Shown: positions 34,321 through 56,651 of the stretch, piece by piece | Numbering within the stretch: position 1 is the stretch's first letter | Layout: each line of letters starts with the position of its first letter | Source: Escherichia phage BUCT632 | Sequence record: PQ488502.1 | Strand: one strand, 5' to 3' | Length of the DNA: 64,000 nt | Position numbers and translations under genes: made by a program | Notes under the pieces: generated by a model | What the model saw: only the letters and a program-made list of their open reading frames with translations | Told to the model about the DNA's origin: nothing | Database searches by the model: none

Positions 34321-34396
34321 GTAAATTTTTCCCAAAGGTGCTATCAGTGTCTTTGAGCATAGAGAAAACCGAGCCAAAATGACTCGGTTATATGGA

Positions 34397-34591
34397 TTAA
34401 TCATAAAAAAGACCACGAATAGTATTAGCAAATTTAAGTATAATAGCGCGGTTTGAGCTACTTAACTTTTTAATATCGAAAGTGGGATCGGTCAAATATC
34501 TTGCCATAAATTTTACTTGCTTAGCTGAAAGTTGGCCCTTATTCCACTTTTTAATCTTACCATAACATACCCAATATTCTTTATTCATCAT
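34397..34591 (-). CDS. Hypothetical protein
   Basis: 64-aa ORF. Confidence 0.4.
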   Translation of the reverse strand: MMNKEYWVCYGKIKKWNKGQLSAKQVKFMARYLTDPTFDIKKLSSSNRAIILKFANTIRGLFYD

Positions 34592-34973
34592 TTAATCCCG
34601 GAACATATATCCCAACACTATTTAATTGTTCTCTAGCTTCTTTGAGAATATCTGGAGTGTACTCCCAAATATCATCTTCCACCTGTAAAAGATGGGGCGA
34701 ACAACCATCATCCGGCACACGACATATGGCCAGACCACGTGGATGGAACAAAGAGAAATTTAGGGCAACAATCAAGCCCATAGCAGACAACTCATTCCAA
34801 TCCAATTCCCATTCCCCGGCGTATCCAGACAGGAAAACGCCAATGCACGGATCATCTGTTTGCTGCTCAGGAAAAGTGAAGGAGGCTTGTCTTACCCCCA
34901 ACCAACGTTGTAGCAGCTTTTCCGCACGCTTCACCAAACTAGGATCAATCTGACGCCAATATACTTGTTCCAT
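34581..34973 (-). CDS. Hypothetical protein (paralogue of the adjacent 142-aa ORF)
   Basis: Shares ...PCIG...W(K/N)ELDEMGL(V/I)(F/V)ALN... and a C-terminal ...G(Y/I)(Q/Y)(I/V)PGL motif with 34983..35411. Confidence 0.55.
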   Translation of the reverse strand: MEQVYWRQIDPSLVKRAEKLLQRWLGVRQASFTFPEQQTDDPCIGVFLSGYAGEWELDWNELSAMGLIVALNFSLFHPRGLAICRVPDDGCSPHLLQVEDDIWEYTPDILKEAREQLNSVGIYVPGLNDE

Positions 34974-34982
34974 TGTGCCCCC

Positions 34983-35411
34983 TTAGGCAGTTAAACCCGG
35001 AATTTGATAACCAAAACGGCGAAGTTTTTGGATACCATCATTTACTTCTTCCGGTGAGTAAGACCAACCATAACGTTCATTAACCTGGAAACCAGGAGAT
35101 TCACTAGTTTTATAGTTAACAACGAGGCGATGCTTAGCAGGCATAAACAGCTTATAGTTTAACGCAAAAACTAAGCCCATTTCATCTAACTCTTTCCAGC
35201 CTACAATCTCTTCAAGACCCTCCTCTACCTGAACAATTAAACCAATACAGGGAGCCTCATCAATATCATCTTTAAAAGCAAAGGAGATTTCATTATTCTC
35301 ACACCATATTTTCAAGGAGTTAATAGCCTCATTATACAGGCTAGCGGGGAGAGTACGCCAAAAGTTAACTAAAATTGGGTTAGCTTCTTTAGAGAATACA
35401 TTATTGAACAT
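34983..35411 (-). CDS. Hypothetical protein (paralogue of the adjacent 130-aa ORF)
   Basis: Tandem paralogue pair; see 34581..34973. Confidence 0.55.
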   Translation of the reverse strand: MFNNVFSKEANPILVNFWRTLPASLYNEAINSLKIWCENNEISFAFKDDIDEAPCIGLIVQVEEGLEEIVGWKELDEMGLVFALNYKLFMPAKHRLVVNYKTSESPGFQVNERYGWSYSPEEVNDGIQKLRRFGYQIPGLTA

Positions 35412-35413
35412 AT

Positions 35414-35926
35414 TTACACCTTAAATTGTTGCAAGGATTTACACATTTCAAGATCTGGGCTAAATTCTAGCATATAGCTAACAGCTTTTAAATCTTGAAG
35501 ATTTATCCCAGTCCTACCATTGACTATAACCGTTGGATACTGATACATCATAGCACCGGCATCATCCAGCACACACCAATGTTTAAGCTTATGCTTTTCC
35601 ACGAAGCGAAGAACAGAATTACCCCTAGATAATCCACCACCAGTAAAATCCGTTGTACCAAGAAAACGATCGATAAGACCTAATCCGGTCATAATCTGAA
35701 CGTTCTCCATCTCATTCCGGACAGAGAACCATGAGGATACCCCAACAATCATTATCGAGGAAGGACGAATAAAATCTTGAAAAGCCTTGAGAAGCGGTTT
35801 GAAAACCCAGTCACTCCCAAAGAAAATCTTTTCATCATCAGGTGCATGATGGTGGGAGATGCTCGAATTGAGCACCCCATCAATGTCCAGAAAAATAATT
35901 GGAGTATTACTTATTTCTTGACACAT
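35414..35926 (-). CDS. HAD-superfamily phosphatase-like protein
   Basis: N-terminal IFLDIDGVL (HAD motif I, DxDG). Confidence 0.55.
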   Translation of the reverse strand: MCQEISNTPIIFLDIDGVLNSSISHHHAPDDEKIFFGSDWVFKPLLKAFQDFIRPSSIMIVGVSSWFSVRNEMENVQIMTGLGLIDRFLGTTDFTGGGLSRGNSVLRFVEKHKLKHWCVLDDAGAMMYQYPTVIVNGRTGINLQDLKAVSYMLEFSPDLEMCKSLQQFKV

Positions 35927-36722
35927 AAGGTCTACCCTCTAAATGAGCTTCTACACGAGCAATAAAATCAGGGTCACTGAAAGCATCTACCGCACCCTTA
36001 CTCCAATAAGGAATACCACGTTCTTCCAGCTGGTACATCTCACTACGAGTCATACCTTGATAGCCTGGCTCTGCTGCTAGGGCACTATCATAGTAGTTAA
36101 CAACCATAAGTTTCGCAGCAGTCAAATTAAGAACAGGAAATAATTCCCAGTAGAAGTTAATTACTTGGTTAGAGCAACCAACCACAACGATCATATCTTG
36201 ACTGGTAATATCATCAAAAACATTGTACATTTCTGCGTATGCAGGAGCATGCTCTCCAAAGAAGATTACATTAGGTTTAACCCATTTATAATCATCTGGA
36301 TCAATAGAATTATATCCTACATCAATAATCCGTTTATTGCTACTATTGTAGCTATCAGATACAACAACCTCTTTTAAATATCCGTGAATGTGCAGAATGT
36401 CACTATGTGGAACGCCAGCACGCTCAATAAGGTCATCAACGTTGGTAGTTAAGTTTACTACTTGACCTGGATATTGTTTATACCATTCACCAATACGCAA
36501 ATGTGCAAGATTGGGTTCAACAGTTTTTAGCTCTTCACGACGCTTGTTGTAAAACATATGGGTTTTATGATAAAAATTACCACGAAAGGCATGAATATTA
36601 CATACTTCTTCTAGATCATAATCATCCCACAATGCTTTACCACTAGCAGTATCAGTACGAAAAGCTCGTACACCACTTTCAACACTCAAACCTGCACCGC
36701 TAATAATAATTAATCTACGCAT
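35907..36722 (-). CDS. Sir2 (sirtuin)-family NAD-dependent protein
   Basis: GAGLSVESGVRAFR (GAGIS-type motif), TTNVDDLIERAG (TQNID-type motif), HIHG. Confidence 0.65.
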   Translation of the reverse strand: MRRLIIISGAGLSVESGVRAFRTDTASGKALWDDYDLEEVCNIHAFRGNFYHKTHMFYNKRREELKTVEPNLAHLRIGEWYKQYPGQVVNLTTNVDDLIERAGVPHSDILHIHGYLKEVVVSDSYNSSNKRIIDVGYNSIDPDDYKWVKPNVIFFGEHAPAYAEMYNVFDDITSQDMIVVVGCSNQVINFYWELFPVLNLTAAKLMVVNYYDSALAAEPGYQGMTRSEMYQLEERGIPYWSKGAVDAFSDPDFIARVEAHLEGRPYVSRNK

Positions 36723-36936
36723 TTTTCACCTGTTCTCTGAAGTTTTGCCCAATACTATCTAACAGCTCAGCTAATTCTTTATTACCTTTCTCCATTAAGG
36801 TATTAGCAATAACTTCTAGCATAGTAGCGCAAGATTCAACACCATCCTTATAGCCAGTTTCCCAGTGCTGCATTAATGCGTTTTCCAAAGCGGCGTTTAA
36901 ACCCTTATCTGGTAGCATCGGCTTCGAGAATGCCAT
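36715..36936 (-). CDS. Hypothetical protein
   Basis: 73-aa ORF. Confidence 0.4.
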   Translation of the reverse strand: MAFSKPMLPDKGLNAALENALMQHWETGYKDGVESCATMLEVIANTLMEKGNKELAELLDSIGQNFREQVKNA

Positions 36937-37108
36937 AAAGTTTCTCCTCTAGTTCCATAACACGATTTTCATAAGAGGCACGCAACTTTTCAATTGCCAG
37001 CGCACGCACTGTAACCTCATTAGAATTAATAGCTAATTGGGCCAGGTCTTCTGTTTCCATACGTCCGTTGTAAATTAAGCGATATTTAAGATGTTTTACA
37101 TTTTTCAT
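36905..37108 (-). CDS. Hypothetical protein
   Basis: 67-aa ORF. Confidence 0.4.
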   Translation of the reverse strand: MKNVKHLKYRLIYNGRMETEDLAQLAINSNEVTVRALAIEKLRASYENRVMELEEKLYGILEADATR

Positions 37109-37317
37109 TCTCGTTCCTCAAACATTTCAATTTCTGCATTAGCAATAGAAAGGGCGGGCTCAGATAAGCACAATCCCATCCTAGGATCGATCTTCCCTTC
37201 GCCAATCCAAGTACTTACTAAACATAATTTAGTTATATCCTCACGGAGAATCGAACCATATGCCCCAGAATCCATAATAAAATAGATACGTTCTTTATCT
37301 ACCTTGTGAACTCTCAT
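37105..37317 (-). CDS. Hypothetical protein
   Basis: 70-aa ORF preceded by a minus-strand TTGCTT-N17-TATAAT promoter and RBS. Confidence 0.45.
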   Translation of the reverse strand: MRVHKVDKERIYFIMDSGAYGSILREDITKLCLVSTWIGEGKIDPRMGLCLSEPALSIANAEIEMFEERE

Positions 37318-37380: not shown

Positions 37381-37410
37381 TAAAAGCCAGGTTGACTAGC
37401 AACCCGGCTG
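37381..37410 (-). terminator. Terminator hairpin downstream of nrdD
   Basis: Reverse complement AGCCGGGTTGCTAGTCAACCTGGCT followed by a T-run. Confidence 0.6.
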
Positions 37411-48485: not shown

Positions 48486-49187
48486 ATGAAAGTAAAACCA
48501 TTTGGTATGCTAGATATTGAATCTCTAGGAACTCCAGGAGATTGTGGTACTACTCATATCGCAATGCCTTCATTCGCTTTTGTAGCTATGCATGGAATTG
48601 ATAAAGACCCTGGTCTAGTATTTGTTACTTTGGATGTACAAGATCAGCTTAATTCTGGTGCTAAAGTTACAGCGTCTACTCTAGCATTCTGGATGGATCA
48701 AGCTAAGCATAGCCCGTCTGCTATCCACATTATGGAAGCTATGAACGAGCGTAATCCAAAGCTGATTGCATTCCAAAACGGTAAACATCATTGTACTAGT
48801 AAACTCGGCTCTAACTATGCTGCCTACTCTAAGGCCCAAAATATTATGGAGTTGGCTCTAGGCGATAATGCTTTGTATTATGGCAACGGCCCAGAGTTCG
48901 ATATGACTATCTACTCTGCAAACACTTTCCATGCTGGAACCAATGAAGAAATAGTTCCGTGGAAATTCTGGAACTTGGGTAATGTTCGATCTCTTCGTAA
49001 TCTCTGGATGCAAACTGGCTATAGTTATAAAGCTCTAGAAACCGAAGCTATTAGCTGGGCAATAGCTAAAATGGAGAAAATGGACACTATTCGTTATGGG
49101 ATCTATCCGGTTAAGCATGATCCAGCATTCGATGCCTTAGTTGAGAGCTATTGTGTTGCAGCTATGATCGAAAAAATGAAAATTTGA
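48486..49187 (+). CDS. DEDDh-type 3'-5' exonuclease-like protein
   Basis: N-terminal MLDIESLG (D-x-E) and C-terminal H-x4-D (KHDPAFDAL); about 233 aa, similar in size to T4 DexA. Confidence 0.5.
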   Translation: MKVKPFGMLDIESLGTPGDCGTTHIAMPSFAFVAMHGIDKDPGLVFVTLDVQDQLNSGAKVTASTLAFWMDQAKHSPSAIHIMEAMNERNPKLIAFQNGKHHCTSKLGSNYAAYSKAQNIMELALGDNALYYGNGPEFDMTIYSANTFHAGTNEEIVPWKFWNLGNVRSLRNLWMQTGYSYKALETEAISWAIAKMEKMDTIRYGIYPVKHDPAFDALVESYCVAAMIEKMKI

Positions 49188-52074: not shown

Positions 52075-52863
52075 AAATTAGGGAACAGCGAGCCGATTAC
52101 GCTGAGTGCAGAATCCCAACCGGAGCGCATTGAATAGAGTCGGTGGGTTAGTTGTAAAACTAGTACACAGGGGGCGGCAATCCCGGTTAGTGGCTAGAAC
52201 GTGTAAAATGAGGCGTCTGAAACCTCTCCCCTAAACTCTTCTCTAATTTATAAATAGTGGGGTGTGGAAATCACTTATGTAGTAACACTGCCGTCCTAGT
52301 ATAATTGGTATTATCAAGCCGTAACTGGTGGAAGATGTAGGTTCGAATCCTACGGTCGGTAAGAACTGGATAACTGATGCTTTTAACGTAAAAGCTTCCG
52401 AGGTTAGTTGCGCACTGCCTAAACCACGCGGTAGTTGGTTCCAGACTAACCAACCAGTCTGCTGAATAGTTTTATTACGATTTAACTATGTCCAGGCTAA
52501 AGAAGAACTTTAGAAGGTATTCTAGGATAGTGAAGTTCTTTCTCCATATCGGAGTAGTTTTTCAAGCTATCCACAAAGTGGGAAATGCTGACATGAGAGA
52601 TGTCACTAATGGTGCACAATAGCACAGGTAATTCGCGATAACTCCTGTTGAGTAGCAGCAAAAGGCGGGAAGTCATGACCCCAAGCCTAACCGAGTCCTC
52701 AATATACCGCAGGATATAACCACTAAGTCACCCTGACTTAAACTGGAAAATAATAGACGTTACCGTATTTTGTCTTGAAATACTTAATGAGTGAGACTTA
52801 TGACTCTCCCGGTATCGTCTGTATTTTTAAGAGTTTTTACGAGAGTTCTTAAAAATACTTAAA
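52075..52863 (+). ncRNA. ORF-free transcribed region with tRNA-like T-arm hairpin (candidate structured stable RNA or precursor leader)
   Basis: About 790 nt without an ORF of 60 aa or more, downstream of a strong promoter; canonical T-arm GTAGG-TTCGAAT-CCTAC at 52337-52353 without a foldable cloverleaf. Confidence 0.3.
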
Positions 52864-52972: not shown

Positions 52973-53920
52973 ATGTTTAATACTAAAAATATGAAAGAAC
53001 TGACTTCTGAGCAGAAAGTAATTCGTACTATTAAACGTTGGGGTATTGGTGCTGTAGTTGGTTTAGCAGGCTTGATTCTAGCTTTTAATTCATATACTAT
53101 TGTTTCTGATGGTACGGTTAAAACCCAAACATTCCTGGGTAAAGTAGATCCTAATCCAGTATTGCCTGGTTTCCATCTTGTAAATCCGTTTGCATCTTTC
53201 GATACTTTTAGTACAAAAGATATTGCTGTAAAATTAGATAAACTTCAGGTTCCTAGCCAGGATAAGTTTAAATCCACTGTTGACCTGACTGTTATGTTGC
53301 AGTTTGATGGTTCTAAGGCACCGATTAACCGTATTAACGCAGGTACTCAGGATCAGGCACTAGACAAGTATGTAACTGAAAAATTATTGTCTACTATTCG
53401 TGAGTTTGGTAAGTCTGTACCTAAAGCACAAGATTTGTTTGATGCTAAAATTCAGGCTCAATTACAAACTGCAATTCAACAGGAAGTTGAAGAGTATGCA
53501 CGCCCATATGGTTACACAGTTAAGCAGGTGTTCCTTCAGGATATTACTCTGCCACCAGTAATCATGGAGCAGGTACAGAATACCAAAGTTCGTGAAGAGC
53601 AAGTTAATGCTGCGAAAGCTGAACTGGCTCGTGTTGAACAGGAAGCACAGCAGAAGGTTAAACAAGCAGAAGCAGATCGTGAAGCTCGTAATAACCAAGC
53701 TATTGCTAATGAACGTGACGCAGATGCTAAACTGTATGCAGCTAAGAAAGAAGCTGAAGCTAACGCCGCACTGCAACGTACCATTACTCCTGAGATGATT
53801 CGTTGGAAACAACTGGAAGTTGAAATGATTCGTGCTCAGAAATATCAAGGTGGTGTACCGCAGACTGTGGTTGGCACTGGCTATGATGGCCAAATGATTA
53901 TGGATATGCGTAATAAATAA
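52973..53920 (+). CDS. SPFH/band-7 (prohibitin/HflC-like) membrane protein
   Basis: N-terminal transmembrane segment (WGIGAVVGLAGLILAF), band-7-like core, C-terminal Ala/Glu/Gln-rich coiled coil. Confidence 0.6.
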   Translation: MFNTKNMKELTSEQKVIRTIKRWGIGAVVGLAGLILAFNSYTIVSDGTVKTQTFLGKVDPNPVLPGFHLVNPFASFDTFSTKDIAVKLDKLQVPSQDKFKSTVDLTVMLQFDGSKAPINRINAGTQDQALDKYVTEKLLSTIREFGKSVPKAQDLFDAKIQAQLQTAIQQEVEEYARPYGYTVKQVFLQDITLPPVIMEQVQNTKVREEQVNAAKAELARVEQEAQQKVKQAEADREARNNQAIANERDADAKLYAAKKEAEANAALQRTITPEMIRWKQLEVEMIRAQKYQGGVPQTVVGTGYDGQMIMDMRNK

Positions 53921-56573: not shown

Positions 56574-56651
56574 GGTTCTCAAGCTCATATGGTATGAGCA
56601 CCCGGCTCATAACCGGAAGGTACGTAGGTTCGAATCCTCGGGGAGCCACCA
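56574..56651 (+). tRNA. tRNA with CAT anticodon (Met or Ile2), weak T-stem
   Basis: Acceptor GGTTCTC/GGGAGCC, D-arm GCTC...GAGC, anticodon loop CTCATAA, TTCGAAT T-loop with only 3 T-stem pairs, CCA. Confidence 0.45.

Follow-up and report, generated by a model that had tools for sequence, protein, structure and literature searches.

What do a sirtuin, a phosphatase and a pair of tandem paralogues do for a phage that carries them side by side? The four ORFs that raise this question lie back-to-back on the minus strand across positions 34581-36722 of a 64,000-nucleotide stretch of Escherichia phage BUCT632 (PQ488502.1), referred to here as the window. An earlier note, written from the letters of the DNA, had read them as one accessory module of the early region, likened the Sir2 protein to the NAD-consuming Sir2 proteins of bacterial immunity, and suggested a role in anti-defence or metabolic takeover. 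All four ORFs were found as that note had placed them, as were the motifs it had quoted from the translations: ISGAGLSVESGVRAFR, LTTNVDDL and HIHG in the sirtuin and IFLDIDGVL in the phosphatase.

The region was 93 to 96% identical in DNA to more than 160 T5-like phage genomes, and the cluster genes were approximately 95% identical to those of hundreds of T5-like phages, which placed the window in Tequintavirus. Because of these DNA and protein matches to T5 and its relatives, the Pfam matches and the invariant Sir2 and HAD catalytic residues given below, the cluster was identified as the T5.100-T5.107-type early operon of a Tequintavirus. Eight genes, the four cluster genes and four small ORFs, were packed between two terminator-like hairpins (Table 1), with overlaps of 20, 8 and 11 nt and gaps of 2 and 9 nt. 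In T5, a terminator and a promoter are annotated where the upstream hairpin lies here, and another terminator follows T5.107, comparable to the downstream hairpin. The operon is flanked by nrdD (anaerobic ribonucleotide reductase) upstream and by an origin-binding primase/helicase gene downstream, and its proposed early placement held, in the nucleotide-metabolism part of the phage genome. In T5 and the other Tequintavirus and Epseptimavirus orthologues, genes, order and flanks were the same as here, the proteins of the window being 94 to 98% identical to those of T5; in T5, however, two additional small ORFs (T5.103 and T5.104) separate the Sir2 gene from the HAD gene, which overlap by 20 nt here. 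The small ORFs upstream vary from strain to strain among T5-like phages, and the 64-aa ORF was identical in phage IrisVonRoten and absent from T5 and the other Demerecviridae loci compared. The cluster is already known: it has been annotated since the T5 genome, and a published RNA-repair prediction exists for the Sir2-HAD pair. The RefSeq label "Sir2" on T5.105 is wrong, as T5.105 is the HAD protein. A search of the literature on DUF7415, the T5 locus tags, HAD_SAK_2 and "phage sirtuin" found no experimental work.

Table 1. Features of the operon and its two limits (positions in the window)
Feature	Position	Strand	Remarks
Intrinsic-terminator-like hairpin	37385..37409	-	just 3' of nrdD; upstream limit of the operon; 10-bp stem, 6 GC pairs, T-run
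Small ORF, 70 aa, phrog_20147	37105..37317	-	kept in T5-like loci L001 and L002
Small ORF, 67 aa, phrog_5236, T5.101 equivalent	36905..37108	-	89% identity to T5 locus L003:4719-4910
Small ORF, 73 aa, phrog_5827	36715..36936	-	8-nt overlap with Sir2 start
Phage-clade sirtuin, T5.102 equivalent, 271 aa	35907..36722	-	Pfam SIR2 and family alignment
Predicted cap-less HAD_SAK_2 phosphatase, T5.105 equivalent, 170 aa	35414..35926	-	20-nt overlap with Sir2 stop
DUF7415 protein a, T5.106 equivalent, 142 aa	34983..35411	-	PF24187, E = 5.4e-36; phrog_2502
DUF7415 protein b, T5.107 equivalent, 130 aa	34581..34973	-	paralogue of DUF7415 protein a; PF24187, E = 1.4e-31
Small ORF, 64 aa, phrog_29527	34397..34591	-	final gene ahead of the terminator
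Intrinsic-terminator-like hairpin	34367..34389	-	downstream limit of the operon; 10-bp stem

The family assignments that had been made for the four proteins were all borne out by profile searches. The single-domain sirtuin had PF02146 SIR2 as its sole Pfam match, which was significant at profile level (89.9 bits, cut-off 24; E = 2.5e-25) and took in positions 1-178 of the 180 in the profile, and its best solved relative was Escherichia coli CobB (1s5p; E = 1.9e-17), the top matches being CobB, Sir2Af1/2 and SIRT5 at E values of 1e-17 to 1e-12. In an alignment of 28 clade members, G9, A10, G11, S16, G17, F21, R22, Y58, R62, N94, H113, G114, K149, P150 and E157 were invariant, including the catalytic His (H113) and Asn (N94), and D96 and R61 were each conserved in at least 90%. 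The TQN of sirtuins was TTN here, Gln being replaced by Thr93, in a register confirmed by the CobB alignment. The phage segment FY58NKR61R aligned to FYNARR of CobB, the class III Tyr/Arg pair. In CobB and SIRT5 this Tyr-x-x-Arg pair binds succinyl and malonyl carboxylates. PADLOC defence models gave no match to any of the four proteins at E <= 0.01. As judged from its sequence, the sirtuin is a phage-specific, zinc-less relative of CobB and SIRT5 and not a defence-type NADase, and its catalytic core looks intact. The likeness to immune Sir2 proteins was therefore not upheld, since the match was of the housekeeping CobB/SIRT5 type, with the class III Tyr/Arg pair kept and no PADLOC model matched. 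This clade is carried by 1007 sequence records, T5 included, together with therapy-relevant Salmonella, Escherichia and Klebsiella phages.

Kinship with CobB and SIRT5 raises the possibility that the sirtuin is an NAD-dependent lysine deacylase with a preference, like theirs, for acidic acyl groups (succinyl, malonyl). It would relieve host or phage proteins of inhibitory acylation and so redirect metabolism in the infected cell, and the HAD and DUF7415 genes would be unrelated neighbours within the nucleotide-metabolism block. Besides the best matches, which included NCBIfam CobB-type models, this possibility is favored by the retention of the catalytic residues, of KPxVVFFGE and of the class III Tyr/Arg pair across a clade whose members have drifted to about 35% identity, and by the presence of Sir2 without HAD in most phage groups. 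The zinc module points both ways: its length was kept, an argument already made for Vibrio-phage homologues (PMC5107563), but every zinc cysteine was lost; none of the clade members has a cysteine in the stretch from His113 to the KPNV motif, and the CobB cysteines aligned to other residues. Moreover, the scores fell far under the NCBIfam CobB-type cut-offs (101 bits versus 243 for NF001753; 90 versus 320 for NF040867), the VYP peptide-staple strand has become V-I-N, the host already has CobB, and the genes that recur nearby encode nucleic-acid or nucleotide enzymes, with no acetyltransferase and no known acyl-protein target among them. We regard a plain deacylase as possible but not probable.

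The neighbouring phosphatase matched PF18143 HAD_SAK_2 (E = 2.8e-20; 73.5 bits against a cut-off of 27.5). All four HAD motifs (DxD nucleophile, S/T, K/R and DD) were present; D14, D16, S64/S65, R101 and D121 were invariant among 26 aligned homologues, and D122 was conserved in at least 90%. The protein is thus predicted, from these four catalytic motifs, to be a HAD_SAK_2 phosphomonoesterase. Its architecture is cap-less (C0), and cap-less HADs typically act on macromolecules. The family profile had no match among PDB sequences. When 141 neighbours of remote HAD homologues (loci L035-L094) were sorted by Pfam family, none of the families occurred more than three times, so such homologues give no signal from context.

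Our best explanation, held tentatively and at rather less than even confidence, is that the sirtuin and the HAD of this T5-type operon act on RNA ends, according to the model of Iyer, Burroughs, Anantharaman and Aravind (2022; PMC9503650), who predicted KptA-like, NAD-dependent RNA-end repair for the Sir2-HAD pairing of T5-like phages. In this scheme, the sirtuin would use NAD+ to place ADP-ribose onto an anionic group of a damaged RNA end, namely, the 2'-phosphate remaining after a metal-independent ribonuclease cut. Its conserved His would activate the ribose 2''-OH, and the phosphate would be released as ADP-ribose cyclic phosphate, as with KptA/Tpt1. The cap-less HAD would then remove a terminal phosphate, whether that of the RNA end or that of the ADP-ribose-phosphate by-product, and ligation would be left to host enzymes.

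Several observations are consistent with action on RNA ends. [quoted passage not shown] The pairing occurred in all T5-like loci, with the order reversed in a divergent contig (L010). In Vequintavirinae-like phages, the orthologous sirtuin (56 to 63% identical) was embedded in one co-directional block of metallophosphoesterase, RNA ligase, cREC, polynucleotide kinase, Sir2, DNA ligase and MazG genes. The family to which the HAD belongs was itself defined on "Swiss-army-knife" RNA repair proteins, and the HAD lacks a cap, as do HADs directed at macromolecules. Some of its more distant relatives have Rnl, PNK and phosphoesterase genes close by (L047 and L048), and in Aeromonas phage PX29 the HAD gene is approximately 650 bp upstream of rnlA. 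Finally, the Tyr58/Arg61 pair marks a predicted anion-binding site beside the NAD ribose. A single family comprising the 116-aa linker ORFs between HAD and Sir2 or between HAD and Adps (L010 and L014) and the cREC that adjoins Sir2 in rV5-like phages was considered and rejected, as BLASTP found no similarity.

Other results count against action on RNA ends. Searches at E <= 1 of the window together with T5 1-50 kb, which jointly span roughly T5 1-93 kb, detected no homologue of three RNA-ligase types, of PNK or of cREC, and no 2H enzyme. Without a phage RNA ligase, 5'-kinase, 2H enzyme or cREC, the repair pathway would therefore be incomplete unless host enzymes took part. An Rnl1-type ligase matched just 14 Salmonella-phage records, versus about 270 T5-like Salmonella phages. 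T5-like phages counter tRNases with replacement tRNAs, and T5 relatives poor in tRNAs are protected against PARIS and OLD by tRNAs supplied on plasmids. In addition, the proteins closest to the sirtuin in sequence are genuine protein deacylases, its FGE peptide-binding motif is retained, Phapecoctavirus-like Sir2 homologues adjoin no repair gene, and the nearest non-T5 HADs are found in NAD-reconstitution rather than RNA-repair operons.

Those HADs bear on a further alternative, closer to the role first suggested, in which the pair would serve counter-defence on the soluble NAD/ADP-ribose pool, the HAD dephosphorylating an ADP-ribose phosphate and the sirtuin processing NAD-derived molecules or signals. 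Example substrates for the HAD are ADPR-1''P from aRES-type defence and 2'-phospho-ADPR, with the Macro-domain Adpp of NARP1-AP as the model. The closest non-T5 HAD_SAK_2 homologues (37 to 42% identical) were the first genes of operons with PRPP-synthetase-like and NAPRTase-like genes (Adps and Namat; NARP1), in Serratia phages ChuuTotoro and Kashira, ABPH49 and a JGI contig, the HAD gene overlapping the next; a phosphatase heading a NARP1 operon rescues NARP1 from aRES. Moreover, Namat-like genes lay 2 to 8 kb from Sir2 homologues in Vequintavirinae-like phages, jumbo phages and locus L158, and the T5-like phage Bas34, which has lost the pair (see below), was singled out as sensitive to the NAD-depleting PsAvs2 and Vesta systems. 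However, many other genes set Bas34 apart from its relatives, and Vesta escapers map to A1. The NARP1-linked HAD was found essentially in one phage lineage and therefore represents one evolutionary event. No Adps or Namat gene was present in the window plus T5 1-50 kb, so NARP1 could not recycle ADP-ribose here, and no NARP3 domains (PnuC and NadR; NARP3 has been described for Epseptimavirus TrudiRoth) were found among ten ORFs at 47.6-58.5 kb of the window. An NAD-consuming enzyme would also be an odd guard of the NAD pool, macromolecules are the usual targets of cap-less HADs, and no PADLOC or anti-defence family was matched. A counter-defence function on this pool thus appears unlikely; an anti-defence or NAD-pool role is unproven, one among three live hypotheses.

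Whether the two DUF7415 proteins belong with the pair is a separate question. Both matched PF24187 in two stretches each, and a shared identity of 31% over 124 aa (E = 2e-18) makes them true paralogues. That all four genes form one obligate module, in which the paralogues would regulate the Sir2 and HAD enzymes or give them specificity as subunits, could be argued from their common transcription unit and from the order NrdD..Sir2-HAD-DUF-DUF. This order did not vary among the closely related T5-like HAD loci, 19 in all, or among the Sir2 loci of Tequintavirus and Epseptimavirus, and even where HAD is missing, in Sugarlandviruses and the 106-kb phage L150, Sir2 still adjoins DUF7415. Yet synteny within a family may be mere inheritance, identity between genera was uneven (52% for Sir2 versus 90% for HAD), and outside Demerecviridae neither HAD nor DUF7415 genes were present near Sir2 homologues. 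Elsewhere, Klebsiella T4-like phages have the DUF7415 core between nrdD and nrdG, in Aeromonas phage PX29 it follows rnlA, and it also occurs fused to thymidylate kinase (dNMP kinase) or dNTP pyrophosphohydrolase. One obligate module is therefore very improbable, and the four-gene unit of the earlier note was not sustained. DUF7415 is probably not part of a Sir2 module; it is more likely that the two proteins serve the neighbouring deoxynucleotide-metabolism genes, as an adaptor or binding module, than that they partner the sirtuin. A diverged cREC or cyclic-phosphate enzyme was rejected as an identity for DUF7415 (hhalign probability, 0.9%).

A natural knock-out bears on the importance of the pair. 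In phage SelmaRatti (Bas34), a single deletion has fused Sir2 residues 1-103 to HAD residues 119-170 in a chimeric ORF, destroying both proteins and leaving both DUF7415 genes. SelmaRatti is viable on K-12, and the pair is therefore dispensable there, in agreement with the description of these genes as accessory. Our best guess is that the Sir2-HAD pair is conditionally useful and not required on laboratory K-12.

The cluster itself is ordinary, well conserved and annotated, and its value lies in the leads that it offers. New here are the lack of an RNA ligase or kinase partner in T5-like phages, the NARP1 operons headed by the nearest non-T5 HADs, the nucleotide-metabolism company of the DUF7415 core and the natural Sir2/HAD deletion of SelmaRatti. 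With this knock-out strain, the NARP1-linked HADs and the DUF7415 link, the question is cheap to test. It is conceivable, if doubtful, that the physiological acceptor of the sirtuin is a phosphate (RNA 2'-phosphate, or soluble ADP-ribose or nucleotide phosphate) and not acyl-lysine, which would make it the first such sirtuin; with the HAD it would make up a minimal module for NAD-dependent healing or salvage, directed against ribonuclease- or NAD-targeting immunity, and in NARP1 operons the HAD family would be the counterpart of Adpp without a Macro domain. If the sirtuin does act on RNA ends or ADP-ribose phosphates, sirtuin chemistry would reach beyond lysine deacylation, and the arms race that phages and bacteria wage over NAD would gain a new layer. 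A plain deacylase would instead offer a clear example of a virus reshaping the acyl-proteome of its host.

Comparison with known systems places the pair as follows. The phage sirtuin shares the GAGxSxxxGxxxFR loop, the Asn/Asp, the catalytic His and KPxVVFFGE with CobB and SIRT5, but differs in lacking zinc cysteines, in having TTN for TQN and VIN for VYP, in a clade-specific invariant Cys41, and in variable insertions after residue 49 and near residue 210. With the defence-type Sir2 NADases (ThsA, DSR1/2 and Sir2-HerA; "SIRim"), it has the superfamily fold and the NAD+ substrate in common; unlike them, it has no sensor or partner domain and keeps deacylase-type motifs that those NADases lack. 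In NARP1-AP (Adps, Namat and the Macro-domain phosphatase Adpp; Osterman et al., 2026 preprint), the phosphatase gene heads the Adps-Namat operon, a position taken by HAD_SAK_2 relatives in ChuuTotoro-like phages, although the fold differs (HAD versus Macro). KptA/Tpt1 has an unrelated ADP-ribosyltransferase fold, as opposed to the Rossmann-type sirtuin, with no sequence similarity; the reaction that we propose would nevertheless be alike, NAD+ and RNA 2'-phosphate yielding nicotinamide, ADP-ribose 1''-2'' cyclic phosphate and RNA 2'-OH. The closest precedent is the type 3 neighbourhood of Iyer et al. [quoted passage not shown] That work is a computational prediction and does not include DUF7415, the missing ligase and kinase, the NARP1-linked HADs or the natural knock-out; the KptA-like chemistry that it proposes would fit both the conserved His of the sirtuin and its putative anion-binding Tyr/Arg pair.

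In Escherichia phage BUCT632, four successive minus-strand ORFs were found at 34581-36722, overlapping or separated by gaps of no more than 9 nt, and their strong Pfam matches uphold the earlier note's identification of a Sir2 protein, a HAD phosphatase and two tandem small paralogues, with Sir2 significant at the profile level. The DUF7415 pair are true paralogues, since they share 31% identity across 124 residues (E = 2e-18). Because the four genes and four further small ORFs occupy the interval bounded by a pair of terminator-like hairpins, the transcription unit is an eight-gene operon and not a four-gene one.

Coordinates of features in the window and in comparison loci (L numbers) from other phages
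Feature	Position	Strand	Details
Sir2 protein	35907-36722	-	271 aa; Pfam SIR2, E 2.5e-25
HAD phosphatase	35414-35926	-	170 aa; Pfam HAD_SAK_2, E 2.8e-20
DUF7415 paralogue	34983-35411	-	142 aa; Pfam DUF7415, E 5e-36
DUF7415 paralogue	34581-34973	-	130 aa; Pfam DUF7415, E 1e-31
Four further small ORFs in unit			70, 67, 73, 64 aa; PHROG families without assigned function
Terminator-like hairpin	37409-37385		Directly after nrdD
Terminator-like hairpin	34389-34367		Other end of unit
Rfam tRNA match	52290-52361		35.5 bits
Rfam tRNA match	56574-56648		40.3 bits
SPFH/Band-7 domain protein	52973-53920
Rv2179c-like 3'-5' exoribonuclease-domain protein	48486-49187
T5.103, T5.104	L003 5797-6155		T5
T5.105	L003 6142-6648		T5
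Chimeric Sir2-HAD ORF	L180 2210-2659		SelmaRatti (Bas34, MZ501103.1); 149 aa
DUF7415 core protein	L178 3480-3713		Klebsiella T4-like phage phiA85
DUF7415 core	L096 7296-7535		Aeromonas phage PX29
HAD overlapping PRPP-synthetase-like + NAPRTase-like operon	L012 8001-11217		Serratia phage ChuuTotoro
HAD overlapping PRPP-synthetase-like + NAPRTase-like operon	L013 7001-10222		ABPH49
HAD overlapping PRPP-synthetase-like + NAPRTase-like operon	L014 7001-10569		JGI contig

Over 160 complete T5-like phage genomes matched the region at 93 to 96% identity. Its T5 counterparts are T5.102 (labelled Sir2-like since the T5 genome paper), T5.105, T5.106 and T5.107; nrdD lies on one side of them and the origin-binding primase/helicase T5.108 on the other, and promoters and terminators are annotated at matching places; PhoH, NrdA/B and a 20-gene tRNA array lie elsewhere in the window. 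Since T5 and its relatives share these genes, flanks and signals, the feature is a known, conserved piece of the Tequintavirus early region, where the earlier note had placed it. Sir2 and HAD overlap directly in the window (35907-35926), whereas T5.103 and T5.104 intervene in T5 and one small ORF does so in IrisVonRoten. In or near the tRNA array (20 genes by ARAGORN, 52.8-64 kb), two Rfam matches missed by ARAGORN may represent degenerate tRNAs or tRNA-like RNAs of the sort annotated in T5. By blastn synteny, the SPFH/Band-7 protein sits at about the position of T5.080 ("lipoprotein") and the exoribonuclease-domain protein at about that of T5.087. The cluster is not novel as a feature, since it has been annotated since 2005 and a functional prediction for Sir2-HAD was published by Iyer, Burroughs, Anantharaman and Aravind (Viruses 2022, PMC9503650). 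They assigned most viral sirtuins to a single clade and described three neighborhood types, including a jumbo-phage type (with 2H, Nudix, cREC and PIN) and a V5/Mydo type (with tRNA ligase, cREC, kinase, MazG and a calcineurin-like phosphoesterase). The V5/Mydo layout was reproduced here, in the form of phosphoesterase, RNA ligase, cREC, kinase, Sir2, DNA ligase and MazG. A literature search found no experimental paper on these genes.

The best solved relatives of the sirtuin were E. coli CobB (E = 1.9e-17), archaeal Sir2Af proteins and human SIRT5; NCBIfam CobB-type models matched with scores far under their cutoffs, and none of the PADLOC defense models matched. By sequence, therefore, the protein is much closer to housekeeping deacylases than to immune NADases, and the likeness to immune Sir2 domains drawn in the earlier note was not borne out. 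Database homologues came from phage-sized contigs only, and 1,007 records in a phage collection carried one, including T5-like, rV5-like, phAPEC8-like, Vibrio T4-like and jumbo phages. Across 28 aligned members reaching down to 35% identity, the NAD loop (G9, A10, G11, S16, G17, F21, R22), the catalytic Asn94 and His113 (with Asp96 and Gly114), the KPxVVFFGE strand and the FY58-N-K-R61-R62 motif were invariant or nearly so. Since the catalytic and NAD residues persist at such divergence, strong purifying selection acts on the sirtuin for NAD-dependent catalysis. The FY58 motif aligns with FYNARR of CobB; in SIRT5 and CobB, this class III Tyr/Arg pair binds the succinyl- or malonyl-lysine carboxylate. 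Its kinship by sequence and the peptide-strand motif that it keeps would fit a plain deacylase, a reading only a little less probable in our estimate than RNA-end processing. In contrast to cellular sirtuins, the phage clade lacks the four zinc cysteines throughout, with segment length unchanged, and has Thr for Gln in TQN and V-I-N for the VYP strand. Cys41 is invariant and specific to the clade, across which two stretches vary: an insertion of 26 residues that follows residue 49, and about 20 residues in the vicinity of residue 210.

All four HAD motifs were invariant across 26 homologues, and no solved relative was detectable by sequence. The AlphaFold model (pLDDT 95.2) shows a beta-hairpin flap as the sole addition after motif I, so the enzyme is predicted to lack a cap domain. 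Although labelled "Sir2 (NAD-dependent deacetylase)," phrog_18062 in fact corresponds to the HAD, over its C-terminal half; because of this mislabelling, T5.105 in RefSeq and the HAD gene of many T5-like genomes are listed as a second Sir2. Chimeric ORFs such as that of SelmaRatti probably seeded this family.

The order NrdD..Sir2-HAD-DUF(-DUF) held at all Tequintavirus and Epseptimavirus loci examined, as well as in a 122-kb relative. A real Sir2-HAD link is best indicated by a divergent T5-like contig with the reversed order HAD, 116-aa ORF, Sir2. The four genes as one module, as the earlier note proposed, were not supported: Sugarlandviruses and a 106-kb relative retain Sir2 and DUF7415 without HAD, and Sir2 loci outside Demerecviridae had neither partner within 6 to 10 kb. 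Compared with Epseptimaviruses, identity was 52% for Sir2 against 90% for HAD, 90% for primase and 98% for PhoH, with 74% and 70% for the DUF7415 proteins. Because of this uneven divergence, and because Tequintavirus Sir2 is nearer (61%) to rV5-like and My1-like alleles than to Epseptimavirus Sir2, the sirtuin has undergone horizontal exchange. Against loci L135 and L140, 35907-39291 was mosaic (Sir2 at 52%, flanking genes at 90 to 98%), which points to recombination there. Two NrdD alleles, 60% and 98% identical to that of the window, occur among Epseptimaviruses.

In SelmaRatti, a deletion of about 850 bp (equivalent window span, 35414-36722) leaves a chimera of Sir2 1-103 and HAD 119-170. 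Loss of His113 and every HAD motif is predicted to inactivate both enzymes; both DUF7415 genes are intact. Since this phage is viable, the Sir2-HAD pair is dispensable on E. coli K-12, and "accessory" was an apt label.

The 130-aa DUF7415 paralogue gave a confident two-lobed alpha+beta model (pLDDT 91.6). Searching 1.8 billion representatives with a profile returned 156 proteins, among which conservation centers on the C-terminal lobe, a core of about 55 residues. This core stands alone or is fused to thymidylate kinase, PF04447 dATP/dGTP pyrophosphohydrolase or unknown domains (P0242, P0256 and P0259 are proteins with the core in fusions or other contexts). It lies between nrdD and nrdG in phiA85 and immediately downstream of rnlA in PX29. 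These neighbors and fusions suggest a tie to nucleotide metabolism, and we read DUF7415 as a promiscuous module with a binding or adaptor role among phage genes of this kind. Kinship to cREC was considered and rejected, as no relationship was found.

For the Sir2-HAD pair, we tentatively favor RNA-end processing, in which the sirtuin would ADP-ribosylate RNA 2'-phosphates in the manner of KptA, as proposed in PMC9503650, and the conserved His would activate the ribose 2''-OH, matching the second KptA step. The rV5-type gene context, the family membership and cap-less build of the HAD, its relatives near Rnl/PNK and near rnlA, the putative anion-binding Tyr/Arg pair beside the reaction center and the His suited to that activation are consistent with this reading. 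However, no Rnl1-, Rnl2- or RnlA-type RNA ligase, PNK or cREC turned up at E ≤ 1 in window 1-64000 plus T5 1-50000, a scope corresponding to about T5 positions 1-93 kb, so T5-like phages appear to lack their own RNA-sealing set there. An Rnl1-type ligase was also essentially absent among about 270 Salmonella T5-like records, and it is known that T5-like phages overcome tRNases through tRNAs that they carry themselves. Adps and Namat were likewise missing at E ≤ 1 from window 1-64000 plus T5 1-50000, so T5-like phages appear to lack NARP1 there too.

NAD/ADPR counterdefense by the pair is improbable, and an anti-defense role of the cluster in general is a possibility. In favor of an NAD/ADPR-pool role are the NARP1-linked HADs described below, the Namat-like genes that lie 2 to 8 kb from Sir2 in several phage groups, and the PsAvs2 and Vesta sensitivity of SelmaRatti. 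In published screens, SelmaRatti was unusually sensitive to the OLD tRNase, PARIS and the NIR-type NADase systems PsAvs2 and Vesta; its tRNase sensitivity is put down by the authors to missing tRNAs, and its being the T5-like phage singled out for PsAvs2 and Vesta is confounded by many other differences. Remaining probability goes to other explanations. New and useful as leads are the absence of ligase and kinase from T5-like phages, the NARP1-linked HADs, the link between DUF7415 and nucleotide metabolism, the sirtuin's mosaic divergence and a phage naturally null for Sir2 and HAD. The nearest non-T5 HADs are HAD_SAK_2 phosphatases, 37 to 42% identical to that of the window and encoded by the first gene of Adps+Namat (NARP1) operons in ChuuTotoro, Kashira, ABPH49 and one JGI contig, an arrangement that goes unmentioned in the NARP1-AP preprint (Osterman et al., 2026). 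In NARP1-AP, the phosphatase Adpp enables NARP1 to overcome aRES; it is a Macro-domain protein, whereas the NARP1-linked HADs occupy the mirrored phosphatase position and, by analogy, may be its HAD counterpart.
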